From: Trueperaceae bacterium
GTDB lineage: Bacteria; Deinococcota; Deinococci; Deinococcales; Trueperaceae
Assembly (NCBI GenBank): GCA_965215565.1
Contig: CBDCDZ010000004.1
Span: 3,655,185-3,687,184 of the forward strand
Direction: 5' to 3'
DNA: 32,000 nt
A model generated the notes under the pieces. That model had not been told where the DNA came from and searched no databases. It saw only the letters and a list, made by a program, of their open reading frames with translations. This document shows, piece by piece, positions 4,809 to 29,936 of this stretch. How positions within the stretch are numbered: position 1 is the stretch's first letter; each line of letters begins with the position of its first letter. The translations under genes were made by a program, and so were the position numbers.

Positions 4809-5585
4809 TCAGGCGGCGATAGGTAGCGCCCGGGTGAGTGCGCCGAGCATCTCTTCAGCGCTGCCGTAGCGCTCGCAAGGGTTGTGTAAGAGCGCCTTTT
4901 TGATGATAGGTGCTAGAGGCGCAGCCTCGTTTGGCAACGCGCCGAGATGCACAGTTGGGTCGCCCATGAGAAAGCGAAACACGTCTTTGCCGTAGGGGGG
5001 ACCGCCCGTCACCATGTGGTAGAGCACCGCGCCTACCGCGTAGAGGTCACTTCTTGGATCGCGCCGCTCGCCCGCGAACTGCTCGGGCGGCATGTAGTTG
5101 GGCGTCCCCAAAGACACGCCCTGCTGGGTGATCGCCGCGAGCGCTAAGTCTTTGGCGAAGCCGAAGTCTGTCAGGAGTGCCTTCTCGCCGTTGATGAGGA
5201 TATTCGACGGCTTGACGTCGCAGTGAATAACGTCACTCTTGTGGGCGTAGGCGAGCGCTTGGAGCACGTCCGTAGCAATCTTGATGCTCCGCTCTAAACT
5301 GAGCGTGCCTTGATTCAGCGCTTTCTCGAGCGACACGCCGGGGCAGTACGCAAAGATGAGGCTCATATCTTGCACAGCTAGGAGGGGCACGATGTTGTCG
5401 TGCTCCAAAAAGGTGACCACCGCAGCTTCGCGCCCTAATCGGTTGGCGAGCGAGGGCGAACCCCCTCTAAGCTCTTTAACCACCACGAGTTTATCGTGCC
5501 AGCGGGCTAACTCGACCCTCATAGGTCCGTGGTCCGAAAGTACGCGAATGGGAGTAAACATTGCCATAAGGTTATCATGTTTCAC
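4809..5585 (-). CDS. Stand-alone Ser/Thr protein kinase catalytic domain
   Basis: Kinase motifs are present: VVVKEL (Lys), HCDVKPSNIL, DFG and PPEQ. There is no sensor or TM domain. It starts 3 nt after the stop of the upstream MBL gene, so the two look co-transcribed. Confidence 0.85.
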   Translation of the reverse strand: MKHDNLMAMFTPIRVLSDHGPMRVELARWHDKLVVVKELRGGSPSLANRLGREAAVVTFLEHDNIVPLLAVQDMSLIFAYCPGVSLEKALNQGTLSLERSIKIATDVLQALAYAHKSDVIHCDVKPSNILINGEKALLTDFGFAKDLALAAITQQGVSLGTPNYMPPEQFAGERRDPRSDLYAVGAVLYHMVTGGPPYGKDVFRFLMGDPTVHLGALPNEAAPLAPIIKKALLHNPCERYGSAEEMLGALTRALPIAA

Positions 5586-11791: not shown

Positions 11792-14302
11792 CTAAAGAGC
11801 TAACTCGGCTCTCAACTGCTGAATGCGGCTCAACACAATAGGGGTGCGCGGGTCGCTGGGCGACAGACGTTCCGGCAGCGTCTCCCACAACGCCAAATCG
11901 TCCACCATGACGGTCGAGAGATAGTATTGCGCCTCGAGGTCTCCTGTAGACATTACGGCCTCTCTCAGGGCGCGTTCGAGGAAACCCTGCTCCTCGATGA
12001 GCCGTGGCGACTCCGCTGCCGCCAACAAAGGACCACGGTAAAGCTCTATCGCCTCGGAAATGTCGCCGCGCTTCAAGTGTGAGAGGAGCGCATTGAAATC
12101 GGCCTCGACTTGCCCGCTCAGGCGGTAGGGACGTGTCGAAATCGGAACGTGTTCGCGGAGCCGCGCAAGCAGGGATTTGATACTCGCCGCCGCTGCGTCC
12201 TCGCCGTATAAGTAAGAGGCCAAGCGCTGTCCGCTCAGACCCTCCGGGTAGAGTGCGAGCAGGGCGAGCACCTCGAGTTGGCGGGTGGACAAGGTGAGTA
12301 TTTGACCATCGAGCCGGACTTGCGGCGGTCCGAGGAAGGTCAGCTCGAGGTGCGCCTTACCCTGCTGCGTCCCGGCAACGACCTTCTGAAAGATCGTTGC
12401 GGGACCGACGAGGTAACGCTCGCCGCTCGTGCCGAGCGCACTGAGGTAAGGCTGCACGTCTTCCATCACACGGTGCGCCGTCACCGTGTCGCCGCGCTCG
12501 ACGTAGGTGAAGGCCAAATAGCTACAAGCGCGGGCATAATGTACGGCTTGAATAGGCGACTTGTAATGGTCCACCGTCCGCTGTAGGTAAGGCTCTGCCG
12601 CTGCTGCGTCGCTCAGAGAAAGTGCCATACCGAGGCTGAGGTCGGCTGCCGCGCGGTCTGTGGCAAGGTGCTGTGCGCGTTGCGCCCACTCCAGCGCAGC
12701 TTCGTGCTTGCCGAGTTCGAGCAGTGTACGCACGAGGTTGATGGCGTTCTCGCCGAACTGCGCCCTGTCCAAAGATTGCGCGTTGGCTTCGTAGTAGGGC
12801 AAGGCCCGGTCTGCCTGACCTTGCGACAACCAATAGTCACCCAAGGTCGAGCGGACTAGGGCCGCGAGCCCCGGCACGCTGGAGGCGAGATGGGCCTCTG
12901 CCTCTTCGAGCAGTGTTTCGAGTCCTGCCGTTTTACCCGTTAAAATACGCCCGAACGCCCACTCGTTGGCAGTGACCAACCACCGATAGGTATTTTTCAA
13001 ATCGTGCTTATCGAACAGCTCCAACGCCCACCCCGCCCAGGTCGTCCCCACATCGTAGCGGCCGACTAAAATGTAAGTCGCAGCGAGCGACCAAGCGTTT
13101 CTGACCACAGCGTACCCGTCCTCTTCCGCCTCGGCTTGCTCGACTGCCTCGTGCAAAACCTCGATGGCTCGTTCGGGCGCGTCGTAGTTCAAGGCCAGAC
13201 CATACTCGTAAAGCGTAAAGGAGGTCCGTGCGAGCGCGACCGCACGTTCCGCCTGTGTAAGGTGGGTGTCGCCGCCACTCAAGGGTGCGTAGAACGCACG
13301 CAAACGAGGGGCATCGTGGTGCTGGAGAAAAGTCTCGATACGCGCCAGAAGGGGTGCGACTTGACCGACACGTCGCGCCGCGACCAGGAGCCAAAACAGC
13401 ACGGCTTCGTTCTCTTGGTGCGTTTCGTCTAGCTGATTCAAGTGGCGCCACAACTGCCGATAGAGCCCCTGCGCTAAAAAGTAATTGCCGGACGCCTCGA
13501 GGATGGTGGGCACTTGCTCCGGTTTGAAGCGCACCGACAATTCCAATGCTTCAGACCATCGTTCCGTGTAGAGAAGGCTGGTGAGCACCTCACCGATGCT
13601 CGCTTCCTCCTCGAAGCCTTGTACGTACCAGTAGCCCTTCGCCGTCGGACGTAACGGAACGGGTCCGCCGTAGTGCTGATGGAGGAGCGCGAGAAAAGGC
13701 TCGAGCGCGCTGCGGCTTTCGGCCAGTAGGTCTGCGAGTACTGCGTCCGGAAGATCGGGGCTCAACTCACGTGCGTCGCCTAGCGACAAGGTGAGGGCGT
13801 CGCGGTCGAGGACGAGGCTGTTCGGGTAGGACAGCGGCAGCGCCTCATCGCTCGTCAAGATTAGGGAAGCCGTGCCGAGCGTGTTGCCTACGTCGGCGAC
13901 GAATTGGGGGTAGAGGTCGGCGTAGGAGATCGCGATCTGGAAGGGGTCGAGGGCGTCGCGGCAGCGTTGCAGGACCGATAGCCCGTAGGGGTAGGGCATA
14001 CCGTGCTGGAGGAGCGGACGACCGAGTGCACGGGTGAGCGCGTCGGCGAGACGGTTACCCAAGTAGACGGGGTCGCCCTGATCGTCCGGCTCCAAACTGA
14101 GCCAGGCGAGAGGTCGGTCCTCGGTCGGTAGACGATGGATGATCTGATGACTGCCCCAGGCCGGGTCGCCGGTAAATAAAACGGGCCCCTCGTGGTGCCG
14201 GATGCGCTCGGTATAGCGCGTGAGCCATGTGCTGTCGGCAAGGCGACCTAGAGTGACTGGCGCGGCGGATTCCCCTTGTCCGTACGAGTGTCTGCTATCC
14301 AT
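11792..14302 (-). CDS. Large TPR-containing transcriptional regulator with a C-terminal SARP-type winged helix plus BTAD domain
   Basis: The C-terminus (LELTFLGPPQVRLDGQ...LSTRQLEVLALLALYPEGLS...YRGPLL) fits the OmpR/SARP wHTH plus BTAD pattern. The middle is TPR-like. The N-terminus resembles the MalT/STAND family but has no Walker A. I prefer the start at ATG 14302 (GGGGGAA RBS) because the first 59 codons of the tracked ORF look non-coding. Confidence 0.7.
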   Translation of the reverse strand: MDSRHSYGQGESAAPVTLGRLADSTWLTRYTERIRHHEGPVLFTGDPAWGSHQIIHRLPTEDRPLAWLSLEPDDQGDPVYLGNRLADALTRALGRPLLQHGMPYPYGLSVLQRCRDALDPFQIAISYADLYPQFVADVGNTLGTASLILTSDEALPLSYPNSLVLDRDALTLSLGDARELSPDLPDAVLADLLAESRSALEPFLALLHQHYGGPVPLRPTAKGYWYVQGFEEEASIGEVLTSLLYTERWSEALELSVRFKPEQVPTILEASGNYFLAQGLYRQLWRHLNQLDETHQENEAVLFWLLVAARRVGQVAPLLARIETFLQHHDAPRLRAFYAPLSGGDTHLTQAERAVALARTSFTLYEYGLALNYDAPERAIEVLHEAVEQAEAEEDGYAVVRNAWSLAATYILVGRYDVGTTWAGWALELFDKHDLKNTYRWLVTANEWAFGRILTGKTAGLETLLEEAEAHLASSVPGLAALVRSTLGDYWLSQGQADRALPYYEANAQSLDRAQFGENAINLVRTLLELGKHEAALEWAQRAQHLATDRAAADLSLGMALSLSDAAAAEPYLQRTVDHYKSPIQAVHYARACSYLAFTYVERGDTVTAHRVMEDVQPYLSALGTSGERYLVGPATIFQKVVAGTQQGKAHLELTFLGPPQVRLDGQILTLSTRQLEVLALLALYPEGLSGQRLASYLYGEDAAAASIKSLLARLREHVPISTRPYRLSGQVEADFNALLSHLKRGDISEAIELYRGPLLAAAESPRLIEEQGFLERALREAVMSTGDLEAQYYLSTVMVDDLALWETLPERLSPSDPRTPIVLSRIQQLRAELAL

Positions 14303-14488
14303 ACATTCCCCCAAAGACCGTGCTAGAGCACATGAGTACATGGAAGATACGAGGCTTGCCCTGAATTTCATCTGACTGCAAGCCTGTGGAGGCTGCTTCA
14401 TACGTCTGAAAAAGTATGTTGCGGTTCGCAACAGGTGGACGCAGACACCTGGGCTTGGTCTAAAACCTTGGACACTCAAAGTATACAG

Positions 14489-15461
14489 CTAAGCGGCTAG
14501 GCTCACCTCCTGAGTCTCTTTTCGCTGCTGGGATAGTTCAAAGGTGTCAGGCGTCTCATAGCCGAGCGAGCTGTGCAGCCGCTCGCGGTTGTAGTAGACC
14601 TCGATATATTCGAACACCGCGACGCGGGCGTCATCGCGTGTGGCAAAGCGCTCAATGGGATAAACGAGTTCGCGTTTTAGTGTCGCCCAAAAGCTTTCAA
14701 TGATGGCATTGTCGAAGCAGGCTCCTTTGCCTGTAAAGCTCGGCAGCATCTTGTGCGCTTCGAGTTCGCGCTGATAAGCGTAGGAGGTGTATTGAGAACC
14801 CCTGTCGCCTAGGTGAAGGCTAAGAGCCTTTGAGCTTCGCTCTAACCTTGTGATGAATCAAACCGGGCTGGGGCTTGCGCCGCGTCGTGGCTGAGCATAG
14901 GGCTTGCAGCACGAGGTCAGTCTTCATATTGTCACTCATGGCGTAGCCCACAACGCGCTTAGAGAAGCCGTCAATGACGCCCGCTAGATAAAGCCAGCCC
15001 TCGGCGGTCGGCAGATAGGTAATGTCAACATGCCATACCTGATTGATCGCTGTTGGGCGTGGTTGTTCCAGCAACAGGTTCTGGGTCTCGAGATCACAGC
15101 GCTCATACTTAGTGCGGTGTTTCTTGTGACTCACAGCGTAGAGCCCTTCACGACGCATAAGACGTTTGACTCTGCCTAGCGAACACGAAACCTGCTGCTT
15201 CTTGAGTTCGGCGTGGACACGGGGGCTGCCATATCTGCCCTTATTCTTCTCGAATACCGCTTTGATCTTCTCCAACAGCTCGGCGTTGCGCTTTTCGCAT
15301 TTGCTCGGCTCCCGCTGCTGACGAGCCCGCCAGTGATAGTAGCTGCTCCTAGCCACGCCCAAGACCTTGCACAGCGCCGAGACGGAGAACTCGCTCTGGT
15401 GCGCCTCGATGAACGCGCACTTTAGGTTGTCTGTTTCGCAAAGTAAATGGCGGCCTTTTTT
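14489..15461 (-). pseudogene. IS3-family transposase OrfB (DDE/integrase core), interrupted by a 40-bp insertion
   Basis: It is split into tracked ORFs 14820-15362 and 14489-14749. Deleting 14809-14848 in silico restores the conserved GLIHHSDRGSQYTS motif in one frame. Confidence 0.85.
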
Positions 15462-15745
15462 ACGATCGCCAACTCTGTTTCAAGTCGCTTCACCTCCGCC
15501 TGGAGCCGTTTCAGTTCGGCTTCGTCAGCGGTCGGTTGTGCTCTTTTATGACCCATCACGAGTCGTCCCTCGCGGTATTGTCTACGCCACTTATGGATGT
15601 TCGACTCAGCAATACCCAAGCTCCGTGCCGCCTCGGTGATGCCGTAGCCCTTTTTCTCTACCAGTTCCACCGCATCGATCTTAAACTCCATTGGATACTG
15701 CCGAACCACCCTCTTGCCTTCTGCCATCGTCTTCCTCCTTAGCAA
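15422..15745 (-). CDS. IS3-family transposase OrfA (HTH)
   Basis: Typical IS3 OrfA sequence: YPMEFKIDAVELVEKKGYGITEAARSLGIAESNIHKWRRQY followed by a leucine-zipper-like C-terminus. Confidence 0.9.
   Translation of the reverse strand: MLRRKTMAEGKRVVRQYPMEFKIDAVELVEKKGYGITEAARSLGIAESNIHKWRRQYREGRLVMGHKRAQPTADEAELKRLQAEVKRLETELAIVKKAAIYFAKQTT
15455..15461 (-). promoter_or_regulatory. Programmed -1 frameshift heptamer AAAAAAG of the IS3 element
   Basis: The minus strand reads GTA AAA AAG GCC. The -1 frame continues as ...FIEAHQSEFSVSALCKVLGVARSSYYHW (OrfB). Confidence 0.75.
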
Positions 15746-16396: not shown

Positions 16397-16690
16397 ATGT
16401 CTATAATTGTAAACAAAAGTATGATGCTAAAGGTGAAAAAGTCGAGTAAGCGCACCTCTTACGAACGGGCATTCTTTCGAGCAGTAGGTGCACGCATAGA
16501 GCTGTTCAGGTTGCGGCGCGGGCTGAGCTTGGAGGAAGTTGCTGCCCATACAGTGCATCCGCCCGAGTGGCTGAAGGGGCTCGAGGCGGGAGTGGAGGAA
16601 CCGAGGCTCGACGACCTATTCGGCATCGCCAAGGCGTTAGGCACCGACCCCAGCGAACTCGTGAGGGTGGAGCCGAAGGTGTTTTCTTGA
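16397..16690 (+). CDS. XRE/Cro-C1-family helix-turn-helix regulator
   Basis: HTH_3 pattern: IELFRLRRGLSLEEVAAHT...LKGLEAG...PRLDDLFGIAKALG. The start is ambiguous: a TATAAT at 16402-16407 would favour ATG 16421. Confidence 0.7.
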   Translation: MSIIVNKSMMLKVKKSSKRTSYERAFFRAVGARIELFRLRRGLSLEEVAAHTVHPPEWLKGLEAGVEEPRLDDLFGIAKALGTDPSELVRVEPKVFS

Positions 16691-16740: not shown

Positions 16741-16980
16741 ATGTCAGGACGCCGCAAGGACCCGGAATACCAGGCTTACAACCGCAAGGTCGGGGAGAGG
16801 ATCAAGGAGCTGAGGCGGGATAAGAACCTCTCTCAGGAGGAGTTTGCTGCCGAGGTCGGACTCAGCCGCTCGTACCTGAGTTTGCTGGAGACGGCTAAGC
16901 AGGACCCGTCGCTCTCGACGCTCTTTAGGGTGGCGAAGGTTTTGGGGTTGAGTGTGAGTGAGTTGCTCGAGGTGGAGTAG
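16741..16980 (+). CDS. XRE/Cro-C1-family helix-turn-helix regulator
   Basis: Canonical pattern: IKELRRDKNLSQEEFAAEVGLSRSYLSLLETAKQDPSLSTLFRVAKVLG. Confidence 0.85.
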   Translation: MSGRRKDPEYQAYNRKVGERIKELRRDKNLSQEEFAAEVGLSRSYLSLLETAKQDPSLSTLFRVAKVLGLSVSELLEVE

Positions 16981-16996
16981 CGTCACCAGAAACTCT

Positions 16997-18664
16997 TCAG
17001 TAATCTATATTCATAGCTGCACTATCGGCGATTTCGTCTGCTGCTAAAGATAGAGCGTGCCTAAGTGCTTCCTGATTTTCATTCTTGAGCAAGCTGAATC
17101 GCGATTGACTCTGTTCGGGCAAGAGGGTTACGCCCGCCTTTTGAAGAAGTCCTCTATACGCAGGATTAGCCACGAATCCTATCATGTTGGAATAATCGTG
17201 CTTATACTTTTCTATGAAATACATAAGCCTTTCGTAAACCCGCGCTTGAGCTGTTTTATCGCGTTTAGATAAGAGGAAGTCGTAATTCAAAACAGCGGGC
17301 TCTTTCACGTAACGCAGAGGAACAGGTCCGTAAAGCCCGGATAAGAAAACAATGTCGATATCGTTCTCTAGTCCCTGTAAACTTTTCACGACTCGCTTAT
17401 ATGACGATGAGTCGGTGTACGGTTTAGCCTGAGAACAGGTGAGAATTAGACAGATAGGTTTCTTGGCCTTAAAACGCCTTTTACGTATATCGAAGGCAGT
17501 AGGGTCATTTCTGACTGGCTTCACCTCCACTGCTTCCGGTAGAGGCTCGCCCTCAAGCAAGGCGCGGAGCTGGGCTCTTGGACGAGCTAGTTCAACGAGA
17601 TAGTCTTCCAGTACGCCTTTCTCCCGAGCAGCAATTGCCTTATCAAGGATTTGCATATCCATTTCAAGATTGTGAAGTGCAGTCGCAGCATAAACGACAC
17701 TCTTACGTCCCCGCTTAACCTCACCTTTTTTGGCTCGCATTACGAAAACATCTTCATGCACATCGCGCGAGTAGCAGACTTGACATGTACATGGATAGGA
17801 CAAAAGTTCCCAAAGACGTCGTTCTTTGTAATTGGGGGTGATGTATTTAAGTGAGCGAGCTTTCTGAATATAACCACTAGTGTCGAAAGTAGTCGCCCCT
17901 GCATGTAAGAGGAAAGGGACGAGAAGTCCGGTGACACCAAAAACATGCATCGGTAACTCTCCTGCAGCGCCACGTACAGCGCGGACATAACGGACGATCT
18001 CCTGCTGTCTCCCCGCCTTTCTTAACGGAACTATGGAACCTAGCCCTACCCCGTGAACGATCTGCATGAGATTTTCCTTGTCGAGACGTTCAAGCACCTC
18101 CTGCGTGAAGATGGCAGCTTGCTCGGGTGTATTCCCGTGAACAGGAACTACAAGATTTATATCTTTATCCGGTCTCTCAGAAAGAATTCTTGCGCAGTAA
18201 AGTGCATTTTGAAGTGTCTTGTTCAGTCGGTTACGCGACTCTTCTTCAGTTAATCCAGGCGGTATCGGGTAATCTAAAGACACAATCCTCGAAGCGCCTA
18301 AAGCTAGCTGGAGTTCGAGAATCTTTTCCTGCATGTTATGTTCAAAGAAGCCGTAGCGATCCAATCCAGCGGGTGGACCCTGCATGAACACGTAACCACC
18401 TGAGTCAGCTAAAATGTGTGCATGATAATCTAAGTCGAAATTGCCATTGTAGTGTTTACGCAGAGGTTTAGACAGCCACATCTCGAGTTGTTTTGGTAGT
18501 ATGGCACCGTAGTTCAAAAAGTGTAGTGCTTGAACCATCACGGGTATATTACGCCTCAATAAACCTTGTTCCATGCCATGCAAGAGTTGCTTATACATGC
18601 CGCCGCCGTTTGGCGTTGTACCTGTCATCATAGCCGTAACTGGGTATAGGATAGAATTGTGCAC
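16997..18664 (-). CDS. TGT-superfamily (DpdA-like) transglycosylase fused to a C-terminal ArcS-like (DUF5591-type) domain
   Basis: TGT hallmarks are in the canonical order: DSGG (residues 87-90), GVGLGSIVPL, HVFGVTG...TFDTSGY (Asp261), and the zinc motif C292-x-C294-xx-C297 with H331-N. Residues 400-555 carry C410-SQA-KPY-TD-S419, which matches the ArcS PC-x3-KPY-x2-S signature as I recall it. Confidence 0.8.
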   Translation of the reverse strand: MHNSILYPVTAMMTGTTPNGGGMYKQLLHGMEQGLLRRNIPVMVQALHFLNYGAILPKQLEMWLSKPLRKHYNGNFDLDYHAHILADSGGYVFMQGPPAGLDRYGFFEHNMQEKILELQLALGASRIVSLDYPIPPGLTEEESRNRLNKTLQNALYCARILSERPDKDINLVVPVHGNTPEQAAIFTQEVLERLDKENLMQIVHGVGLGSIVPLRKAGRQQEIVRYVRAVRGAAGELPMHVFGVTGLLVPFLLHAGATTFDTSGYIQKARSLKYITPNYKERRLWELLSYPCTCQVCYSRDVHEDVFVMRAKKGEVKRGRKSVVYAATALHNLEMDMQILDKAIAAREKGVLEDYLVELARPRAQLRALLEGEPLPEAVEVKPVRNDPTAFDIRKRRFKAKKPICLILTCSQAKPYTDSSSYKRVVKSLQGLENDIDIVFLSGLYGPVPLRYVKEPAVLNYDFLLSKRDKTAQARVYERLMYFIEKYKHDYSNMIGFVANPAYRGLLQKAGVTLLPEQSQSRFSLLKNENQEALRHALSLAADEIADSAAMNIDY

Positions 18665-18704: not shown

Positions 18705-19151
18705 TCAAGTAGGAAGCAGGAATTCGTACCGCAACATTTTGCTTATATTCCTATGCGGGTTATCTACGATAAGAACGGTTTCAGCGTTGCGGTAAAAGCT
18801 GCCCCAGAGGAAGTTTGCTGACCCCACTAGAGCGATTTCATCAGTGATCAAACCCTTGCTGTGCAAGTGAGGAACAATGTGGTGTTTATCAGGCGTAAAG
18901 CGCGATAAAAGTGCATTGAGCCTCCGGTCCGGTTCTCTCGTATAGATTGAGGTTCGATGCCCCTGTCCTTGTAGATAAAGTAGCAAGGTGCTCAGTCGTT
19001 GCGGTCCCGATTTATTGACAGGATAAGGTAGCTGTAGGGGTAGATCGTCCATCCAAGGGCTGACAATTGCGATGTCACCCTCGCTACTCAACATAATCTG
19101 AGGAACCAACCACGGCAGCTTCTTAGAGGCTAAGAACACGGTTAGGTGCAC
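18705..19151 (-). CDS. PLD-superfamily (single HKD, Nuc-like) nuclease
   Basis: HSKGLITDEIALVGSANF gives an HxK(x4)D(x5)GSxN motif. The size of about 148 aa would require a dimer. The 5' end overlaps the helicase stop, so the exact start is uncertain (19151, 19139 or 19094). Confidence 0.8.
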   Translation of the reverse strand: MHLTVFLASKKLPWLVPQIMLSSEGDIAIVSPWMDDLPLQLPYPVNKSGPQRLSTLLLYLQGQGHRTSIYTREPDRRLNALLSRFTPDKHHIVPHLHSKGLITDEIALVGSANFLWGSFYRNAETVLIVDNPHRNISKMLRYEFLLPT

Positions 19152-22100
19152 CGCTCTCGAGAACCATCGGTAAGTTTTTCCCCTCTCTAGCCCTTTCGGA
19201 AAGTTCTTTGTTGCTCATCTCTATTATCAGCCTCGATAGTATTGACTCAGCGAGTAACCTTGAAGGCTCCTCGTCACCGATCTGCTGAGTACCGACACAA
19301 ACGGGGCAGCCATCAGTTTCTAAACAGGTGTATTGGAATGGCTCCCCACTCGCTCGTTGGTTGATCAACCGGGTAAGTTCGTTTGAAACTTCGACGAAAA
19401 TATCCTCTGGTAGCGTACTCTGGGGATCGGGTAGGTTGAGGCGTGCCACCGTACGCGTACGTAATAGTTGGGCGTCTATACCATCGCGCAATGCCTCTTC
19501 AGCTAAACCGACAGGGCATAGCACAACACGTAGCAGTTCTTGGTAAACCTGAAGTGCATCAGCCTCAAGTGCTTTCTGGAAAACTTCGATAAGACCCGCG
19601 CCCCCCTCAAAAACTTCCCACACCGAAACGTTATTGTCGCCGATCGCAGACTCTAAATCTTCACGGTGCACGCCGACGACACTTGCTACTGCCCGATGAA
19701 GCAGCTCTCGAGCGGTGGCAAGTGCCACTCCTCGGAGTTGCTGCGGCTGCGCTCGTCCCTCACTAAGCTCGTTGAGCAAGTCATCGAGCTGCCATCCAAG
19801 TGCTTGCGTGTCTATCGTATACACCATTGGCTCAAGGTAACGGACTTCAAAGCGGTCTGGATCGCCGCTAGCCCTGAAATACTCTGCGTCCGCGTCTCTA
19901 TCGTTTGAGTTACTCTTCAGATAACGATGTGACTCAACGTCAGAACCTAAAACTCTGGTCCTCCCTTGTCCCTCAAATACACGCAGTCGCTCGCTAATAC
20001 ACGTTCCCGTATGATTTTCGAAACGCCTCTCTAAGTAGGGCTGGGCGTAGAGCTTTCGAAATTCAAGTTGCCCGCCACATTCACAAACCCGCTTACTAAG
20101 ACTGTGAACCTTGTAGCATTGCTTACAAAATTTAACGACTTGGCGTCCTTGACGGTCCGTACGGACGCCGCGTAAAGGTACAATCTGAGGACGTACACCC
20201 CCTTCTACACTTAAACCCTCAATGGGTAAACGCACCCTGACCCTGCTTCCGTCAACCCAATCAGGGTGGTGTTCCGTATCGAGGGTTGCCAAAGTCGTGT
20301 CTCCATAATGACGATAAGTCAGTCTATACGGTAAATAAAGACTCGCTAAGTTGGAAACTTGCTCCTCTATGTAGTCAGAGCTGCCGCTAGAGTAACGCTT
20401 TTCGAAACGCAAAGGCTTTACGGTTTGAAAGTAAGATGAGGGTAGGAGAGAGCTGATGGAGACCGGACAGTTGTTCTCTACGCAGGTGTGGCTAGGTTCG
20501 CTTACTGCGTCGACGCCAGCGTGTAAATAGTAAAGCGAACCTAGCGTTACTTTTATGTCTTGTGGAGACGATTGGAAGGACCACCCTTTATTCCAGTGCT
20601 CCTTTAACGTGAAAAAGAAGTTGTGGAGCCGCTCGTAGTCAGAGATGCTTCCTTCGCCTGTTCGTCTTAGGTTATAGAGGTGAGCCCTAAGGTTAGTAAG
20701 CAAGGTCACTACTTCTGCGAGATGCTCGGCACGTTCAGGTTCATCAACGAGAATCTGGCTTACTTGGCTGATAAGACTATTGGTAGTAAGACGCTGTGTC
20801 GGCTGTGCTCCTCCAGCGAGGTAGTTGTCGATCTGCTCTCGGAATGCATCTAAGTCATTCATCAACTCGGTGGGAAAAGCGCTTCGAAGTTGAGTCAAAT
20901 GGCGTCTCAAATCGAGGATAGGTCCGGTTCTCTCTAATTCTCTATCAGCCCAGCCAATCAAAGCATCTTTGAATCCAGAAAGATCGAAGTAGCCTGCAAA
21001 TCTGTCTCTAAAATTGTCAAAGTCTTCCTGATACTTAGCACTCAATGTTGGGCAGGCTTCGAGCTGGTCGAGGATGTAACGTGCTATGGCCTTAGGTGGA
21101 AAACTTTCGTTTTGTTGGTAGTACTTGGCATATTGACTACGGTCCCGCTCCAGTCTCTCGTGTAATTGTTGAATAACCGCATTGTCCGTATTGAGGGGGA
21201 TGTCGAAAACGCCATTTAGTAACCGTTGACGTCTAAAAAGTGCGAAGTTATCCGGAGCGTCGTTACCCAATATAAGGATGCTATGACTTAGATCGCCTTG
21301 CTTTCGTCCAGCGCGTCCGCGCCTCTGAGTAAAACCTGCTAGAGAACGCGGTGGTCTGTATTGGACAACAGCTTTGATCTGTTCATTGTCCACGCCTACC
21401 TCCAGTGTAGGCGAAGCGACAAGAAGATTGGGACTAAGATTTTTACCCGTCTTCGATGTGACTTGAGCTACTGAGAGAGGCTCTTCACTAACTACTTCTG
21501 CTGGTTCATAGCAATCTTTGCCACCATGTATTCCTCTCCAGCACTCGCCCGCACTATAGATATCGCAGCGCATAGGTTCCTTGCGAGGGCAGGGTTCATT
21601 ATTCCCATTTAACGGGTAAGAAATATCTTCGACTACCGTGCGGAATGCCCAAAGCCCTTGATTGTGTTCAGCGTCTCGAAGCTGATTAAAAAAGCGCCCC
21701 GTCTGATCGAGAGAATCCGCAAAAATGATAACCTTCTCTTGAGGGGTCAAAAAAGCGTGCCCGAGTGCCATAGCGCACTGGATGAGTAAGGAAGACGGAG
21801 CAGGGCTTGACTCATCAGTTGGCGTCTGAAGCGTGACAAACCCTTCTATTCCTCCCAACTCTTGCTCTGCTTCGTAGGCACTTGAAAGAGCCTCGTGTGC
21901 TCGGACTCCCTGGTCACTCCCGTAAAATAATCGGCTCGCGAAACGTATAGGGTCCGAAATGGTTGCGCTGGCAGCAATGAGCGTGAGTTCTTTGCCAACA
22001 AGTTTCTTCAGCCGATTGATGAGCTGATGAACGTGGACGCCGTAAAGCGAATCGTACAGATGCGCCTCGTCGATAACAATTCCGCTGAGTCCTGTAAGGA

Positions 22101-23010
22101 ACGGTTCAAACTCCGGCCGAAGGTAGAAGGAATCGAGCGACTCGGCTGTCGTTACCATTATCGGTGGGTTTGCCTTGATATGCCCTTCACGCGATATTGA
22201 CACCGCAAAAGTTTTTTTGCAATCTGGGCACTCAAGTTCTCGGTAGGGTTGCTCTCCTTTTGGAAGGAGTCGCAATTTGACCTTCGCACCACAGACGGGA
22301 CATTCTTCTAGCGATTGAAATTCTCCTGATTCGAAGAGGGGAGAGCCATCATCGTCATATTGATTATCGACCGTTAATTGGTCAGAACGCTTGACGGAGC
22401 CGAACTGAATTCCTACCGGAATGACATGACCTTGCTGTCGCGCGAAATAGGCTGCGCTCAACACCCGCGCAAGTTGATCCTCAAGCAGGGCGATGCGAGG
22501 ATAGACTAAAATGAAACGCTGGGTGGGGTTCTTCAAAAGACTGTAGATAAGAGGAAGTACGAAAACTTCCGTTTTTCCGGCTCCCGTAGGTGCCGTGATG
22601 ACGAGTCCAGAGCGATTCTCCACTGATCTCAAAACTTCAGCCCAACCGTCGACCTGAAATCTACTAAATTCTGGGTACGGGCTCAGTTTGGCGACAGCTT
22701 CCTGTTCGGTCGTAGGAAAAGTGCTTACGCTGCGAATAGGTCTTGTGCGAGGTATGGCGTCAAAACGGAGGCGTCCAACAAGAACATTGCCGCTTTCGCT
22801 CGCTCCAAAGCGCTGTTTTACCGTCTCCAAAATCCGCAGTAGCTCAAGCGTTCGTGGCACCTTGACACTAGGGGAAAGGGCGACCATATGTGCATCTGTA
22901 CTGATAGCATTAGAACGCCGCGCCACAACCGCCGCATCTGGCGTTGTGTTGTTGCGATTTACTTCTGTGCTAATTCGCTCCAATTCTGCGAGTAGTTCAG
23001 GCAGCATCAA
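19123..23010 (-). CDS. Large superfamily-2 DEAH helicase with inserted zinc ribbons and a DUF1998-like Cys-rich C-terminus
   Basis: Helicase motifs: APTGAGKT (140-147), DEAH (314-317), SAT (348-350) and QRRGRAGR (562-569). A CxxC...CxxC ribbon (C237, C240, C261, C264) is inserted in the RecA1 domain and a 4-Cys cluster lies at 474-500. A CKQC...CEC ribbon and the DGCPVC motif near the C-terminus (about 1229-1238) fit the DUF1998/MZB signature as I recall it. A GAGG RBS precedes the ATGATG start. Confidence 0.8.
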   Translation of the reverse strand: MMLPELLAELERISTEVNRNNTTPDAAVVARRSNAISTDAHMVALSPSVKVPRTLELLRILETVKQRFGASESGNVLVGRLRFDAIPRTRPIRSVSTFPTTEQEAVAKLSPYPEFSRFQVDGWAEVLRSVENRSGLVITAPTGAGKTEVFVLPLIYSLLKNPTQRFILVYPRIALLEDQLARVLSAAYFARQQGHVIPVGIQFGSVKRSDQLTVDNQYDDDGSPLFESGEFQSLEECPVCGAKVKLRLLPKGEQPYRELECPDCKKTFAVSISREGHIKANPPIMVTTAESLDSFYLRPEFEPFLTGLSGIVIDEAHLYDSLYGVHVHQLINRLKKLVGKELTLIAASATISDPIRFASRLFYGSDQGVRAHEALSSAYEAEQELGGIEGFVTLQTPTDESSPAPSSLLIQCAMALGHAFLTPQEKVIIFADSLDQTGRFFNQLRDAEHNQGLWAFRTVVEDISYPLNGNNEPCPRKEPMRCDIYSAGECWRGIHGGKDCYEPAEVVSEEPLSVAQVTSKTGKNLSPNLLVASPTLEVGVDNEQIKAVVQYRPPRSLAGFTQRRGRAGRKQGDLSHSILILGNDAPDNFALFRRQRLLNGVFDIPLNTDNAVIQQLHERLERDRSQYAKYYQQNESFPPKAIARYILDQLEACPTLSAKYQEDFDNFRDRFAGYFDLSGFKDALIGWADRELERTGPILDLRRHLTQLRSAFPTELMNDLDAFREQIDNYLAGGAQPTQRLTTNSLISQVSQILVDEPERAEHLAEVVTLLTNLRAHLYNLRRTGEGSISDYERLHNFFFTLKEHWNKGWSFQSSPQDIKVTLGSLYYLHAGVDAVSEPSHTCVENNCPVSISSLLPSSYFQTVKPLRFEKRYSSGSSDYIEEQVSNLASLYLPYRLTYRHYGDTTLATLDTEHHPDWVDGSRVRVRLPIEGLSVEGGVRPQIVPLRGVRTDRQGRQVVKFCKQCYKVHSLSKRVCECGGQLEFRKLYAQPYLERRFENHTGTCISERLRVFEGQGRTRVLGSDVESHRYLKSNSNDRDADAEYFRASGDPDRFEVRYLEPMVYTIDTQALGWQLDDLLNELSEGRAQPQQLRGVALATARELLHRAVASVVGVHREDLESAIGDNNVSVWEVFEGGAGLIEVFQKALEADALQVYQELLRVVLCPVGLAEEALRDGIDAQLLRTRTVARLNLPDPQSTLPEDIFVEVSNELTRLINQRASGEPFQYTCLETDGCPVCVGTQQIGDEEPSRLLAESILSRLIIEMSNKELSERAREGKNLPMVLESGAPNRVLSL

Positions 23011-23449: not shown

Positions 23450-24061
23450 GTGCGAAGAGACGTGTTGATAACGGTTTTAGTAGCCATCTATATCGCTACT
23501 GAGTTAGTTTCGAACGCCACAGCGGGCCGCCTCGTGCAGCTAGGCGCATTTGTCTTCCCTGGAGCGATTTTTCTCTACTCCCTTACCTTTACACTGCGAG
23601 ATGCGGTGCATACAGCGGGCGGTTGGCGCGTCGCCAAAGCGCTCATTTGGGCTGGCTTCATCGCGAACGCTATTCTCGCGCTTTACGGGTTGTCCATTAA
23701 CGCATTTCCTAAACCAGTCTGGTTCGATGACTCAGCTTACCAAGCAGTGTTCGGAACGACGGCAAGGGTAGTCGCCGCTTCTCTGGTTGCTTATCTCGCG
23801 TCCACCTGGCTCGACGCTCTCATCTTTGAACGTTTCAAGCGCTCGATAGTCAACCGCGTGCTTGCCTCAAATGTCGTTTCTACGTCTGTCGATTCTGTCC
23901 TCTTTATTACTATTGCATTCGCCGGCACAGGTGCCCCGCTGCTCAACCTCATTGTCGGACAGATAGTCGTTAAGATGATCGTAAGCACCCTACTCATCCC
24001 TGTCGTATATTGGGTGCGGGACACTTTACGTGAACAAGGGTTGGCGATGGAGGGATACTAG
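23450..24061 (+). CDS. yhhQ: Queuosine-precursor (preQ0/preQ1) transporter, YhhQ/VUT family
   Basis: About 6 TM helices, with the typical motifs ATELVSN...AGRLVQLG, FPGAIFLYSLTFTLRD and SNVVSTSVDSVLF. The start is GTG. Confidence 0.8.
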   Translation: MRRDVLITVLVAIYIATELVSNATAGRLVQLGAFVFPGAIFLYSLTFTLRDAVHTAGGWRVAKALIWAGFIANAILALYGLSINAFPKPVWFDDSAYQAVFGTTARVVAASLVAYLASTWLDALIFERFKRSIVNRVLASNVVSTSVDSVLFITIAFAGTGAPLLNLIVGQIVVKMIVSTLLIPVVYWVRDTLREQGLAMEGY

Positions 24062-24757
24062 ATGTCAAGAGCAGTCGTTCTACTCTCGGGTGGACTCGAC
24101 TCCGCTACAGCAGCTGCACAGGCTATCGCAGACGGCTATGATCTCATGGCCCTTTCCTTCCGATATGGTCAACGTCACGAACGGGAACTCGAAGCTGCTA
24201 AAGCGGTAGCCGAAGCGCTGCACATTCAAGAGCACTTCGTTAGCGACGTCAACTTGGCACAGTGGGGTGGGTCGTCTCTCACCGATGAAGATATAGACGT
24301 GCCTACAGGAGGGAGCGACGCGAATGCCATCCCCTCGACCTACGTTCCCGGACGCAACACCGTCTTCATTGCGATTGCGCTCTCGCTCGCCGAGGCGAAA
24401 AACGCTGAAGCCATATACCTCGGTATCAACGCCGTGGACTACTCGGGTTATCCTGATTGTCGACCTGAGTACTTAGAAGCGTTCAAAAATCTCGCTGAGC
24501 TTTCGAGCAAAGCAGGACTTGAAGGTAATGCGCCTAGGCTTGTTGCCCCACTCGTTATGGACTCGAAGGCAGACATCGTCAGGCGTGCCCTCAGGCTAGG
24601 TGTGCCCATCGAGAGTACATGGTCCTGCTATCAAGGCATGGAGGAGCCGTGTGGAGTCTGCGATTCCTGTCGTATCCGTGATCAGGCTCTTATTAAAGCA
24701 GGGAAAGCAGACTTAGTCGGCTCCTTCAATTTATCTCGCGCTGTCCCGAGTTGCTAG
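24062..24757 (+). CDS. queC: 7-cyano-7-deazaguanine (preQ0) synthase
   Basis: PP-loop [22 protein letters not shown], and the C-terminal zinc cluster CYQG...CGVCDSC. The ATG follows the yhhQ stop directly (TAGATG). Confidence 0.9.
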
Positions 24758-25457
24758 CCCCTGGTTCATTGTCCGCTCCAATAAGGTTCTTATAGCTTTC
24801 GGCAAAAAGTGAAAGCGCAAATATAGTTTCATCAATAACTTCAATTGTCAGGTTGCTTGCTTTCTGAATGGAATCGAATTGAGGTCTCCAACCATTTGCT
24901 TTACTAATAAGTGTAAGTTTAGAAATTAGTTCGGGGTTCATTGTTTCTTTAGTAATTTTCCAGTCATCATGGGGATCATGATCAACTATGTAGCTATATA
25001 ACGGAGTTATTCCCCCACCTCCCGGTCGATCAAAACCGTAGAAGGTATATAGCGATGTTTCCCTGCCTTCAGGTAATGTGTAGAGACAGTTTCGCGCTCT
25101 TTCCTCTAACCATTTAGCCATCCAAGGATTAGAGCCATGTTCGCGCTCACTAGCAACCTTGATCAATTCCCTCAGAATACTTTGGAAGTCTTTGAGGACC
25201 CGCTGAACTAAAGAACAATAATTTAGCAGATGCGTAGCAACGGGGTAGTAGACAGTTTCTTGGATCAAATACCACGCAGCTATGTCTCCTCCCAGAACGC
25301 CATCTTCGTCAACGAACGTTTTAGCATGTCGCTCAATCATCACCGAATACATCTGTTCTAACGCCGACGCACGAGGGTACCAATCTTCATGACCTAGTTC
25401 TCTAATGTCACTAAATACAGAATTATCTGACTCGTCAGGGATCATTTCGTCTCCCAA
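24726..25457 (-). CDS. Hypothetical protein (lowest-GC gene in the window)
   Basis: 243-aa uninterrupted ORF in about 40% GC DNA. Its 3' end overlaps the queC 3' end by 32 nt. No motif recognised. Confidence 0.5.
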
Positions 25458-28721: not shown

Positions 28722-29936
28722 CTACTCGATGATTTCTAGCACGTCCTTAGGCTCAATCTTGCCCTTAAACCAGATCACCTTGGCGCGGGTCTTGCTCACG
28801 TCCACACCCGCACCCTCGAGGTTGAGCCGTTCGGAGACCGCCAAGACCAGGTCGTCCCTGCCCGACTTCTCCACCTGCATAAACTTTTTGCGCAGATACT
28901 CAGGACGCCAGTAGCCCACGATCTCGAAGAGAAAACTGCGTCCATCGGGGTGGACCAGGCGGAAGTCTGGGATCATCACACTGCCGGGGATGGGGACGAG
29001 GTCGACTTCGCGCTCCAAGCGCCACTCGGTCTGTTGGGTGTCCCAGCGCTTGGACAGGGCTTGCTCGAGGATGGAGTCGTAGACCTTCCCCTTCTTGTAG
29101 TGGGAGACCAAGCCACTGTTGGGCTCGAGTGTATACCTCGCTTCTTCGGGCACACCGTCGTAGGTCTGCTTAGGATTCAAGACTGCCGTCATCTGCCAGC
29201 GGGTGACATGTAAAAGGGCGGGGAGGAACTTGGCCAAGTCCACACCATAGCGCGTGGAGGCTTTGAACAAACTATTCGGACCGTCCACTGTAATGGTGAA
29301 GCCGTGCTCAGGGTCGCCCTCAATATAGGCGAGTAAGCGAAAGAGCTTCAGGTAGCGGAAGAGCTGCTTGTACTCGCCGGGGTCGTTGCGATACGCCGTT
29401 AGGACGAGCTCGCTGGCGCGGTAGAGGACGCCCTGCGCTTGCGAGAGGTTGTAGCGGTGGATGAGGGCGTCAGGGGTAGGGGACTCGAAGCTCACCATGA
29501 TCTGGTTCTCCGCTAGGTCGGCATAGAGTCCGGCTCTGACTTGACTGGGTTCGACGTGGGTCTCGAGTTCTCGGCTCAGGGCGTCGGCGACTTCGCTGTG
29601 AATAGCCGTCTCCACCGCTTCGTCCGGTGCTTGCCTTGCAGCCAAAGCGAAGGCCCGCTCCCTAAGCTCTTCCGGTTCTAAGGGGCTGACCGTCTCGAAC
29701 TCAGCAAAGCCGGAGGTAAGGAGATGGGCCAACCCTCGTTTGACCCGGTAGTCCGTCTCTTCCCCCTCGAGCAGTTGCAACTCGGTATCGAGCACGTGAC
29801 GCGGCTTATTCAAGCAAGCACAGAAGACCTGAATGAGTTCTTGCGCCGTCGCCAGGTTCCCTTTACTCAGCTCGAGCCACTTGGGGACGATCTCCTCACC
29901 GTTGTAGCGGTGCATCAACAGCTCGCTCGGCAGCAC
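28722..29936 (-). CDS. DUF790-family (Bax1-like) nuclease partner of XPB
   Basis: The N-terminus LLMHRYNGEEIVPKWL... and the C-terminal IPDFRL...FEIVGYWRPEYLRKK (PD-(D/E)xK-like) fit DUF790. The GTG start overlaps the XPB stop by 1 nt. Confidence 0.7.
   Translation of the reverse strand: MLPSELLMHRYNGEEIVPKWLELSKGNLATAQELIQVFCACLNKPRHVLDTELQLLEGEETDYRVKRGLAHLLTSGFAEFETVSPLEPEELRERAFALAARQAPDEAVETAIHSEVADALSRELETHVEPSQVRAGLYADLAENQIMVSFESPTPDALIHRYNLSQAQGVLYRASELVLTAYRNDPGEYKQLFRYLKLFRLLAYIEGDPEHGFTITVDGPNSLFKASTRYGVDLAKFLPALLHVTRWQMTAVLNPKQTYDGVPEEARYTLEPNSGLVSHYKKGKVYDSILEQALSKRWDTQQTEWRLEREVDLVPIPGSVMIPDFRLVHPDGRSFLFEIVGYWRPEYLRKKFMQVEKSGRDDLVLAVSERLNLEGAGVDVSKTRAKVIWFKGKIEPKDVLEIIE

Follow-up and report, generated by a model that had tools for sequence, protein, structure and literature searches.

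An unsplit YprA-family helicase, a small PLD nuclease and a TGT-DUF5591 fusion as a probable minimal Dpd-like 7-deazaguanine system

The locus raises the question of which kind of system is formed by a large SF2 helicase rich in cysteine clusters and an overlapping gene for a small PLD nuclease, a pair that the initial annotation had related to DISARM and Druantia. The window analysed is the whole stretch of 32,000 nucleotides, in whose positions all coordinates are given (Table 1); the ORFs scanned were those between 16.4 and 25.5 kb and the larger flanking ORFs. The initial annotation ended at position 18705, missing the TGT-DUF5591 gene, QueC and the preQ0 transporter.

Table 1. Genes of the locus and predicted zinc modules of the helicase
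Feature	Coordinates	Strand	Remarks
YprA-family (DpdJ-like) SF2 DEAH helicase	23010..19123	minus	1295 aa from TTG
Zinc ribbon 1 (predicted): C237, C240, C261, C264	22219..22302	minus	RecA1 insert between motifs I and II
Four-Cys cluster 2 (predicted): C474, C482, C490, C500	21511..21591	minus	RecA2 insert between SAT (348) and motif V (535)
Zinc ribbon 3 (predicted): C962, C965, C976, C978	20077..20127	minus	beta-rich region between helical domain and DUF1998 tail
DUF1998/MZB-type tail, residues ~1101-1240	19291..19710	minus	putative four-Cys site C1165, C1229, C1235, C1238
Small single-HKD PLD-family nuclease (DpdK-like)	19151..18705	minus	148 aa; 144 aa from second GTG at 19139
TGT-DUF5591 fusion, 555 aa	18664..16997	minus	DpdA/ArcTGT-like domain and ArcS C1/ArcS2-like domain; predicted DNA-modification enzyme
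Vut_1/YhhQ-family queuosine-precursor (preQ0) transporter	23450..24061	plus	divergent from helicase
QueC, 7-cyano-7-deazaguanine (preQ0) synthase	24062..24757	plus	TIGR00364 229 bits, cut-off 150.3

The helicase has the motifs GAGKT (143), DEAH (314), SAT (348, motif III), TLEVGVD (535, motif V) and QRRGRAGR (562), and matched Pfam DEAD, ResIII and Helicase_C. In the public call, P0001, the protein has 1294 aa, one fewer than the ORF from TTG, which fits an ATG at the second codon (23007). A profile search of the PDB with the helicase placed MrfA at the top (1.2e-31). AF2 models of the two halves reached a pLDDT of 89 (N) and 85 (C); in Foldseek the N-half model matched MrfA (3e-19) and then DrmA (1e-14), and the sole matches of the C-half model with probability >0.5 were to MrfA (4e-7 and 2.7e-3) and DrmB (0.02). 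As modelled, the C half carries an OB-CON-DUF1998 canopy, and judged from sequence and models the helicase is a member of the YprA/MrfA (DUF1998) family, of the defence type.

For both halves, no solved structure is closer than MrfA/YprA of Bacillus subtilis (PDB 6znp, 6znq, 6zns), which, like the helicase, has a DEAH core, an OB-CON-DUF1998 canopy and the C..DGCPxC zinc motif at its end. However, MrfA is a repair helicase of 751 aa partnered by the MrfB exonuclease, and several features of the window helicase are missing from it: the three extra predicted zinc modules, the helical domain of about 250 residues after RecA2 and the helical insertion in DUF1998.

Comparison with 29 homologues (32-55% identity) found fifteen cysteines conserved in 27-29 of them: those at 237, 261, 482, 490, 500, 962, 965, 976, 1165, 1235 and 1238 in all 29, and those at 240, 264, 474 and 1229 in 27-28. 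The cysteines listed in the initial annotation (237/240/261/264, 474/482/490/500, 962/965/976/978 and 1229/1235/1238) all lie exactly at the positions given there. From the positions of the cysteines and helicase motifs, ribbon 1 is placed in RecA1 ahead of motif II, and cluster 2 in RecA2 between SAT and motif V. Ribbon 1 was modelled as three-stranded with a pLDDT of 92-97; cluster 2, at about 88-91, has a conserved 'GECWRG' context in the homologues. The predicted ribbon 3, whose fourth ligand is Cys or His among the homologues, is flanked by beta strands in the C-half model (pLDDT 87-95), and the beta-rich region holding it is taken, by analogy with MrfA, to be the OB/CON part.

The DUF1998-like tail that had been proposed was borne out by the Foldseek matches to MrfA and DrmB and by the terminal motif 'C..DGCPxC', which aligns with the C-terminal 'HCPCHDGCPSCIG' of MrfA. 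Pfam MZB matched residues 1101-1155 below threshold (E=0.031, 15.4 versus 24.2 bits). The DUF1998-type site probably has as its first ligand C1165, which was overlooked earlier and is separated from C1229 by a helical insertion of about 60 residues; with C1165, C1229, C1235 and C1238 present in 28-29 of 29 homologues, a DUF1998 four-Cys cluster is predicted. Many zinc modules are not unusual in themselves, having been described as a hallmark of YprA helicases with a defence role.

Within the YprA family, the nearest profiles were those of Dpd. PADLOC DpdJ was the best profile for all 29 helicase family members (best 8e-70), with DruE and DrmA well below it at about 1e-17 to 1e-23, and DruE profiles matched short helicase motifs only, with up to 64 bits. 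Against the NCBIfam equivalog DpdJ (NF041067) the helicase scored 168 bits versus a cut-off of 800, and only over residues 98-572 in the N half; more distant relatives likewise scored 100-207 bits. The suggested kinship with DruE and DrmA thus holds for membership of the YprA/DUF1998 family, but the nearest profiles are DpdJ and DpdK, not DruE, DrmA or DrmC. The further suggestion that the helicase fuses two DISARM proteins reverses the logic, because the unsplit helicase-DUF1998 form is the norm of the YprA family, from which DISARM departs by its split (Bell et al., bioRxiv 10.1101/2025.09.15.676423).

The PLD ORF contains the pattern HxK(x)4D(x)6GSxN, with H97-x-K99-x4-D104 followed by GSAN at 18813-18863, and five PLD homologues all keep H97, K99, S111 and N113. 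Single-motif PLD/HKD members of the Nuc and BfiI type act as dimers. Pfam PLDc_2 was matched at 31.5 bits (cut-off 27). DpdK was the best family for all five homologues (best 4.6e-13, below cut-off); the window ORF scored 36.8 versus 100 bits against the NCBIfam equivalog DpdK (NF041068) over profile positions 31-159 of 167, and 20.7 versus 133 bits against DrmC. Translational coupling of this 148-aa single-HKD ORF to the helicase, as first described, was confirmed: counted from the first GTG the overlap is 29 nt, and from the second GTG (codon 5), the likely start according to the homologue alignment, it is 17 nt. The same 17-nt overlap occurs in loci L083, L084 and L085, and the PLD gene is kept downstream of the helicase in 10 other related loci.

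The third gene encodes a fusion that matched Pfam TGT (46.2, cut-off 26.3) and DUF5591 (27.3, cut-off 26). Its TIM-barrel TGT domain has the acid/base, base-recognition and nucleophile Asp and the CxCxxC...H zinc site: D87, D131 and D261 align with D95, D130 and D249 of Pyrococcus horikoshii ArcTGT (1iq8), C292/C294/C297 and H331 align with the zinc site of the same protein, and all of these residues are invariant in five homologues. The domain is closer to archaeal tRNA ArcTGT than to bacterial DpdA, and a weak Pfam DpdA match was found in one homologue only. The C-terminal part matches AF0587 (2q07), and its DUF5591 domain has C-x3-KPY-x2-S. Compared with the reference motif of ArcS2/DUF5591 (PF17884), PC-x3-KPY-x2-S-x2-H, the window protein reads TC-SQA-KPY-TD-S-SS-Y, with T for P and Y for H but C, KPY and S unchanged. 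The final H is Y or F in the window, L001 and L083, and is retained in L084 and L085. As the motif is degenerate, the product may not be dG+.

The genes for fusion, helicase and nuclease lie side by side in the window and in 11 other loci, with short gaps or overlaps and in two gene orders: helicase-PLD-TGT in the window, L001, L083 and L091-L094, and TGT-helicase-PLD in L084, L085, L104 and also L099, which is cut by the contig end. L086 has the TGT-helicase order with a DUF4365 protein in place of the PLD; it is such a protein that fills the PLD slot in Thermogemmatispora. Cyanobacterial members of the helicase family adjoin DndB/DpdB-like genes, and in Pannus the neighbour is a fusion of DUF6884 (DpdC-type) and TGT. 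The fusion is also found without the helicase, together with GmrSD_N and HEPN, beside NurA/HerA, or without an obvious partner in defence. The transporter (TIGR00697 80.6 bits, cut-off 50.95; Pfam Vut_1 4e-34) adjoins the system in L001, L084 and L085 too, and QueC is linked also in L001 and in L083, where QueD and QueE accompany it.

The adjacent TGT-DUF5591 gene, QueC and preQ0 transporter point to a 7-deazaguanine (Dpd-like) system, not a DISARM- or Druantia-like one. In Salmonella, DpdA needs the ATPase of DpdB. The Dpd system of Salmonella enterica serovar Montevideo (DpdA-K) gave the best profiles for the helicase and PLD here, DpdJ and DpdK, and the likeness extends to a YprA helicase that is unsplit and has a RecA1 zinc module, to a small PLD partner, a linked TGT-family transglycosylase and preQ0 supply genes (QueC, YhhQ), and location in an island. 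DpdJ has been described as a YprA helicase with a small PLD partner (Bell et al., bioRxiv 10.1101/2025.09.15.676423), dpdD-K give restriction in Salmonella (PMC10164549), and the commonest neighbours of tgt genes are PLD or Cas4-like nucleases with a helicase (PMC5567051). The differences are considerable. There are three core genes here and eleven in Dpd; the canonical set (dpdA-dpdB(-dpdC) and dpdD-K operons) is absent from the scanned ORFs, which hold only J-like and K-like genes and the TGT fusion, with no match to DndB/DpdB, DUF6884/DpdC, SNF2 DpdE, DpdF-I or other Dpd proteins. The C half of the helicase is not recognisably DpdJ-like, and both the DpdJ and DpdK matches are far below equivalog cut-offs. 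The helicase has two extra predicted zinc modules and retains the DUF1998 four-Cys site, which is lost in canonical DpdJ and kept by deep-branching Dpd-like lineages (Bell et al., bioRxiv 10.1101/2025.09.15.676423). Here DUF5591 is fused to an ArcTGT-like transglycosylase; in Dpd the transglycosylase is paired with DpdB/DpdC.

The same two predicted sequential activities, a DNA transglycosylase and a DUF5591 core, occur in DpdA2 and ArcS2 of Vibrio phage nt-1, a pair that makes dG+ in DNA; a DUF5591 domain with DpdA2 of this phage gave dG+ in E. coli plasmid DNA (PMC10516641). In the phage these are separate proteins with an anti-restriction role, whereas here they are fused in one bacterial polypeptide and coupled to a predicted restriction module, and the window protein has Tyr instead of the motif histidine. 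BRIGADE of haloarchaea (Bell et al. 2025) likewise combines a deazaguanine biosynthesis cluster with YprA helicases and a small nuclease of the PLD or PD-(D/E)xK type, but its YprA helicases, usually two and accompanied by DpdG and DpdHI/BrxC, are ARMADA-like and carry a BrxA-like insert, and it is reported only from halophilic archaea.

Could the helicase and nuclease instead be a DISARM- or Druantia-like module acting alone, in which the helicase targets the PLD and base hypermodification plays no part? DISARM DrmA/DrmB/DrmC (PDB 7s9v, 7s9w) and DruE share the helicase family, DrmB is the counterpart of the C-terminal canopy, DrmC is a weaker match for the PLD, and no TGT gene lies within 10 kb in some members of the family (Crocosphaera, L087). 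We consider this unlikely, as the DrmA, DruE and DrmC profiles lie well below DpdJ and DpdK, no DISARM methyltransferase, DrmD/E or DruA-D partner was found in the operon and flanking ORFs scanned, and TGT-DUF5591 is adjacent in 12 of 15 helicase-bearing loci, in either order. In DISARM the helicase is split from its canopy, self-marking is by DNA methyltransferases and the PLD is larger, and the DrmA and DrmC profiles match the window proteins weakly. Membership of DISARM was rejected on the unsplit helicase, the DrmC score below cut-off and the lack of a methyltransferase among the scanned ORFs, and that of Druantia on the lack of any Dru-family PADLOC match in the scanned neighbour ORFs and on the short-motif DruE matches.

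A modification-dependent (Type IV-like) system, in which the fusion would recognise or excise 7-deazaguanines of phage DNA and helicase-PLD would degrade the damaged DNA, is less probable again. Glycosylases attacking such DNA form a recognised class of defence (bioRxiv 10.1101/2025.10.29.685425) and GmrSD_N, with which the fusion also pairs, is a domain of Type IV enzymes; but linked QueC, QueD/E and preQ0 transporters suggest base synthesis and insertion rather than removal alone, and sensing needs neither a complete transglycosylase active site nor a nitrile-modifying domain. Least probable of all is that the fusion is a tRNA archaeosine-type enzyme merely adjoining an MrfA-like repair helicase. 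Against it stand the absence of PUA and C2 tRNA-binding domains, the tight and order-independent linkage in 12 loci, the low-GC island (0.47-0.52 versus 0.55-0.64 outside, with an IS3 remnant at its edge) and a nuclease slot alternating between PLD and DUF4365. The best named matches of the TGT domain are nevertheless tRNA enzymes (TgtA, 83 bits, and ArcTGT 1iq8), MrfA is the closest solved structure, and in L098 and L101 the fusion lies among housekeeping-type genes. The MrfA repair branch is separate from the defence branches, its conserved partner being MrfB or none and not a PLD (Bell et al., bioRxiv 10.1101/2025.09.15.676423). The finding that the initial annotation had named as fatal to its view, a tail without DUF1998 homology on a helicase clustering with MrfA-type repair helicases unlinked to PLD genes, was not obtained.

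We therefore favour, with fair though not full confidence, a minimal Dpd-like 7-deazaguanine restriction-modification system without DpdB-DpdI. QueC and the YhhQ-type transporter would supply preQ0, and the TGT domain would, like DpdA, replace guanines in the cell's own DNA by it. The fused ArcS2-like domain would then act on the nitrile, with an archaeosine-type amidine (dG+) or a similar derivative as the most likely product. The helicase would load on DNA and translocate, with the canopy and three extra zinc modules as possible surfaces for DNA reading or partner binding, and on unmarked DNA would direct the co-translated PLD nuclease, which would have to dimerise, to cut, presumably as a complex. 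In this view bacterial defence would be provided by a compact system of three genes: the helicase and nuclease probably form its cutting half, and the TGT-DUF5591 gene is probably the one that puts a 7-deazaguanine base into the cell's own DNA as a mark.

A YprA-family helicase, a small PLD protein and a TGT-DUF5591 fusion are encoded by three tightly packed ORFs on the minus strand of the window, and the genes for QueC and a preQ0 (7-cyano-7-deazaguanine) transporter lie divergently upstream. The trio is best supported as a minimal restriction-modification system resembling the 7-deazaguanine system Dpd (DpdA-K of Salmonella); for the trio, the modification step, modified base, protein complex and restriction step are all predicted from homology and linkage. 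The initial annotation had described the helicase and the PLD protein, and its interpretation omitted the neighbour that defines the system, the TGT-DUF5591 gene immediately beyond the PLD ORF.

Features of the trio and its surroundings (window positions)
Feature	Position	Strand	Remarks
IS3-family element	14489-15745	-	left edge of low-GC island
Two XRE-type HTH ORFs	16397-16690, 16741-16980	+	convergent with operon 3′ end
TGT-DUF5591 fusion	18664..16997	-	555-aa ORF, 40 nt beyond PLD ORF
PLD ORF	19151..18705	-	148 aa, overlaps helicase stop; Pfam PLDc_2
Helicase	23010..19123	-	1295-aa ORF, first of three tightly packed ORFs (23010-16997)
243-aa ORF	24726-25457	-	3′ end overlaps QueC end by 32 nt, opposite strand
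XPB-type helicase (XPB_DRD, ResIII, ERCC3 C-terminal), then DUF790 protein	28722-31381	-	

The deposited helicase has 1294 aa compared with the longest ORF, which fits an ATG start at 23007. Helicase motifs were located at residues 143 (GAGKT), 314 (DEAH), 348 (SAT), 535 (TLEVGVD) and 562 (QRRGRAGR). The Cys residues and ORFs reported in the initial annotation were all found to be present, the Cys lying at C237/C240/C261/C264, C474/C482/C490/C500, C962/C965/C976/C978 and C1229/C1235/C1238. From the motif positions, the first ribbon (C237-C264) is an insertion in RecA1, and the second cluster belongs to RecA2, with SAT (motif III) before it and motif V after it. A search of 5.8 billion proteins yielded about 30 full-length homologues with 32-53% identity. 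Cys was found in 29/29 aligned homologues at positions 237, 261, 482, 490, 500, 962, 965, 976, 1165, 1235 and 1238, and in 27-28 of the 29 at 240, 264, 474 and 1229, so that 15 cluster Cys are present in 27-29 of the 29; other Cys, such as C412, C843 and C1004, were unconserved. As judged from this alignment, conservation across homologues excludes chance as the source of the pattern. The fourth ligand of ribbon 3 alternates between Cys and His among homologues, and the invariant C1165, which had not been listed before, forms a probable four-Cys site with C1229, C1235 and C1238.

The best solved relative of the helicase family profile was MrfA/YprA of B. subtilis (1.2e-31), and in the family profile search the short helicase stretch C..DGCPxCi aligned with the C-terminal HCPCHDGCPSCIG of MrfA. 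The Pfam MZB/DUF1998 model touched residues 1101-1155 only weakly (E=0.031). Because this match was marginal, the helicase was modelled in two halves (residues 1-640 and 591-1295) from the 29-sequence alignment. Foldseek with the N-terminal half (pLDDT 89.3, pTM 0.86) gave MrfA as the best match (3e-19) and then DrmA (1e-14), with Brr2, Lhr and Hel308 behind. For the C-terminal half (pLDDT 85.2, pTM 0.80), the only matches with a probability above 0.5 were MrfA (4e-7 and 2.7e-3) and DrmB (0.02, probability 0.84). Both halves thus have a YprA-family fold, and the DUF1998-like tail postulated from the sequence is real, since the C-terminal half matches MrfA and DrmB. In the tail, some 60 residues form a helical insertion that separates the first Cys from the second, which accounts for the weak Pfam score.

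The relationship of the helicase to known defence systems had been drawn to DISARM and Druantia; the YprA family was correctly recognised, but by profile the nearest system is Dpd rather than Druantia (DruE) or DISARM (DrmA). DpdJ, the YprA-family helicase of Dpd, was the top defence-system profile for 29/29 family members (best 8e-70), compared with about 1e-17 to 1e-23 for DruE and DrmA. The match to DpdJ is limited to the helicase core (residues 55-572) and scores 168 bits against an NCBI equivalog cut-off of 800. An exhaustive phmmer search of 1.84 billion cluster representatives with the C-terminal half returned 61 proteins at E<=1e-3, 33 of them at E<=1e-30, and these counts indicate that the family is a rare lineage. 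The possibility that the distant C-half relatives are canonical DpdJ was rejected, as all were sub-threshold and DpdJ-like. A profile scan of genome contigs with the helicase alignment, which keyed on generic helicase motifs, found Pannus as the only true relative, plus unrelated archaeal helicases. For DpdJ, DpdK and DrmC alike, the window proteins score below the curated cut-offs for membership; we therefore classed the system as Dpd-like in its mode of action and did not count its proteins as members of these families.

The PLD ORF exceeds the Pfam PLDc_2 cut-off (31.5 bits versus 27) and carries the single HKD motif noted previously, H97-x-K99-x4-D104, followed by GSAN. PLD proteins with a single HKD need two copies per active site, as established for Nuc and BfiI, and the dimerisation suggested in the initial annotation is therefore reasonable by analogy. 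In three loci containing the helicase (L083, L084 and L085), the end of the helicase gene and the beginning of the PLD gene share 17 nt, and alignment suggests that the overlap in the window is likewise 17 nt, counted from the second GTG of the PLD ORF. The PLD profile matched at least 92 clusters of ~157-aa proteins, nearly all without annotation; identical longest-contig sizes suggest that many of these clusters share contigs with helicase or TGT-DUF5591 matches.

The TGT domain of the fusion scores 46.2 bits in Pfam (cut-off 26.3). Alignment with P. horikoshii ArcTGT revealed that it keeps D87 (general acid/base), D131 (base recognition) and D261 (nucleophile), as well as the CxCxxC...H zinc site, and the catalytic Asp residues and zinc site are invariant in five homologues. 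Replacement of the nucleophile Asp by Thr was considered and rejected: in the alignment with ArcTGT (1iq8), the catalytic Asp249 corresponds to the motif's second Asp, an invariant residue here. The second part is DUF5591 (27.3 bits, cut-off 26), the C1 core of archaeosine synthase ArcS, and matches PDB 2q07; its motif C-x3-KPY-x2-S is kept, with the final His changed to Tyr. No homology between DUF5591 and the DpdC-type DUF6884 was seen with hhalign, in which the TGT part alone aligned, and the fusion had no match among the PADLOC models. In public records such proteins are called 'tRNA-guanine transglycosylases' or 'DUF5591 proteins', and the system genes bear no specific names. The family comprises at least 90 clusters, a wider set than the helicase-linked one; a profile scan of viral contigs with its alignment found nothing. 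The deposited fusion, P0071 (544 aa), begins 11 codons later than the longest ORF (window 18632-18664) and lacks an N-terminal 'LYPV' segment, whose Pro and Val do not vary across five homologues.

Five loci were found through the helicase (L001, L083, L084, L085 and L086, the last from Thermogemmatispora carboxidivorans) and six independently through the TGT-DUF5591 protein (L091, L092, L093, L094, L099 and L104). The fusion gene adjoins the helicase in all 11, in either of two gene orders, helicase-PLD-TGT or TGT-helicase-PLD. The coupling of PLD and helicase, already apparent from their overlapping ORFs, was borne out: a small PLD ORF follows the helicase in every locus but L086 and L099. 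L099 is an exception because it ends at a contig edge, and in L086 a DUF4365 protein (14093-14656) occupies the PLD position, apparently an exchange of one nuclease-slot gene for another. The L001 helicase is 53% identical to that of the window. Genes for preQ0 supply (Vut_1, QueC or QueD/E/C) lie beside the core in several loci. In three cyanobacterial loci of the helicase family (L002, L003 and L087) a DndB/DpdB-like gene is adjacent, and the Pannus helicase neighbours a fusion of DpdC-type DUF6884 and TGT, a canonical-style Dpd modification module. Homologues of the system proteins with names are from Chloroflexota, Cyanobacteria and Acidobacteriota.

The fusion was also found with other partners. 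In Allocoleopsis franciscana (L088, 10001-13621) and a metagenome contig (L100, 785-4446) it is followed by a GmrSD_N (DUF262) protein and a RiboL-PSP/MAE_28990 HEPN protein, a second recurrent trio in which the writer module may be served by a different effector set. In L096 the partner is an N6-methyltransferase. A 185-kb contig (L090) carries a distant TGT-DUF5591 (26% identity) surrounded by dozens of short ORFs on the same strand; a Dam-type methyltransferase and a nucleoside deoxyribosyltransferase are encoded there too. This contig has the appearance of a large phage or plasmid that employs the fusion by itself. No obvious partner was seen in L098 and L101. In a Blastocatellia contig (L089, 3533-11689), UvrD, NurA-like and HerA/DUF87 genes are followed directly by TGT-DUF5591, so that another helicase-nuclease set adjoins the fusion.

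Of the two genes upstream of the helicase, the transporter scores 80.6 bits with TIGR00697 (cut-off 50.95), and QueC scores 229 bits with TIGR00364 (cut-off 150.3). The GC content is 0.47-0.52 in the 17-26 kb block, versus 0.55-0.64 in its flanks. The IS3-family element is likely decayed, with orfA (15422-15745) intact and orfB split into two ORFs, 14489-14749 and 14820-15362, the latter with HTH_21 and the initial part of rve. The XPB/DUF790 pair also occurs in L001 (2762-5436), a few kb from the island, so that the island has the same chromosomal surroundings in this related organism. The second XRE-type ORF matches 'control protein' profiles of restriction-modification systems (PADLOC 8e-15); the XRE-type ORFs are probably not part of the core, since L001 has no counterparts. 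The 243-aa ORF had no match in Pfam, NCBIfam or PADLOC and none by tblastn in related loci. Ser/Thr protein kinase genes (1808-3802, +; 4809-5585, -), one with NHL repeats, and an 895-aa ORF (11792-14479) without a Pfam match at 1e-5 appear unrelated to the system. Neither a preQ1 nor any other riboswitch was found in the window, the 440-bp intergenic region between the divergent genes included, nor was a tRNA integration site, and a search for flanking direct repeats gave nothing beyond short chance matches. A promoter and terminator scan was uninformative, shuffled sequences giving more matches than the real one.

The YprA family includes DrmAB, DpdJ and DruE, and a small PLD protein is the partner of DpdJ (Bell et al., bioRxiv 10.1101/2025.09.15.676423); a helicase/PLD pair by itself is expected for this family. 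PLD and PD-(D/E)xK nucleases can replace one another in related systems, and only in DISARM is the canopy consistently split off as a separate gene (Bell et al., 10.1101/2025.09.15.676423). The earlier view that the window helicase fuses two DISARM proteins therefore reverses the logic. Compared with canonical Dpd, the window system lacks DpdB (the ATPase required by Salmonella DpdA), DpdC and DpdD-I, its helicase keeps four predicted zinc sites, and its transglycosylase is ArcTGT-like and fused to an ArcS-type domain. The family fits the description by Bell et al. of an uncharacterised deep Dpd-like lineage; the accessions retrieved for it were not found in the portion of their Table S1 that was compared, and no name for it was found in the literature searched. 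DUF5591 appears in the searchable literature only in the paper on phage ArcS2, and a compact trio of genes that includes a DpdA-ArcS2 fusion has not been described there.

In the proposed mechanism, the TGT domain would act as a writer that swaps G for preQ0 in DNA in the manner of DpdA, whose Asp95/Asp256 chemistry is the same as that of tRNA TGTs (PMC10164549). The DUF5591 domain would then alter the nitrile of the inserted preQ0; DpdA2 of Vibrio phage nt-1, together with the stand-alone DUF5591 protein ArcS2, produces the archaeosine-type base dG+ in E. coli plasmid DNA (PMC10516641). The helicase with the PLD nuclease would be reader and effector, paralleling DpdJ/DpdK, which belong to the dpdD-K set needed for restriction in Salmonella (PMC10164549) and were picked out by Tsai et al. 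as the Dpd helicase and endonuclease. Zinc modules are typical of defensive YprA helicases, with roles suggested in target recognition, structural stability or complex formation (Bell et al., 10.1101/2025.09.15.676423). Put together, these steps would amount to a self-sufficient three-gene epigenetic immunity, a joint reading that we offer tentatively and consider rather unlikely to hold in full: TGT-DUF5591 would place preQ0 in the chromosome with no help from a DpdB-type ATPase and, within the DNA, turn it into an amidine base of archaeosine type or a new one, the zinc-rich YprA helicase and dimeric mini-PLD would destroy unmarked DNA, and the same writer would also serve GmrSD_N+HEPN and NurA/HerA sets.

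If this joint reading is true, dG+ or a novel derivative would for the first time mark a bacterial chromosome, and no smaller deazaguanine restriction-modification system would be known. DpdD-K are described as having unknown roles (PMC10164549), which leaves the way in which the eleven-gene Dpd system restricts DNA unexplained; with only three genes, a natural counterpart would offer a far simpler setting for studying how a 7-deazaguanine mark is sensed by a YprA helicase and a PLD nuclease is licensed. The three-gene reading also predicts a bacterial DNA transglycosylase independent of DpdB and fused to an ArcS-type domain, archaeosine-type bases possibly present in bacterial chromosomes, and a portable writer module reused with several effector sets.
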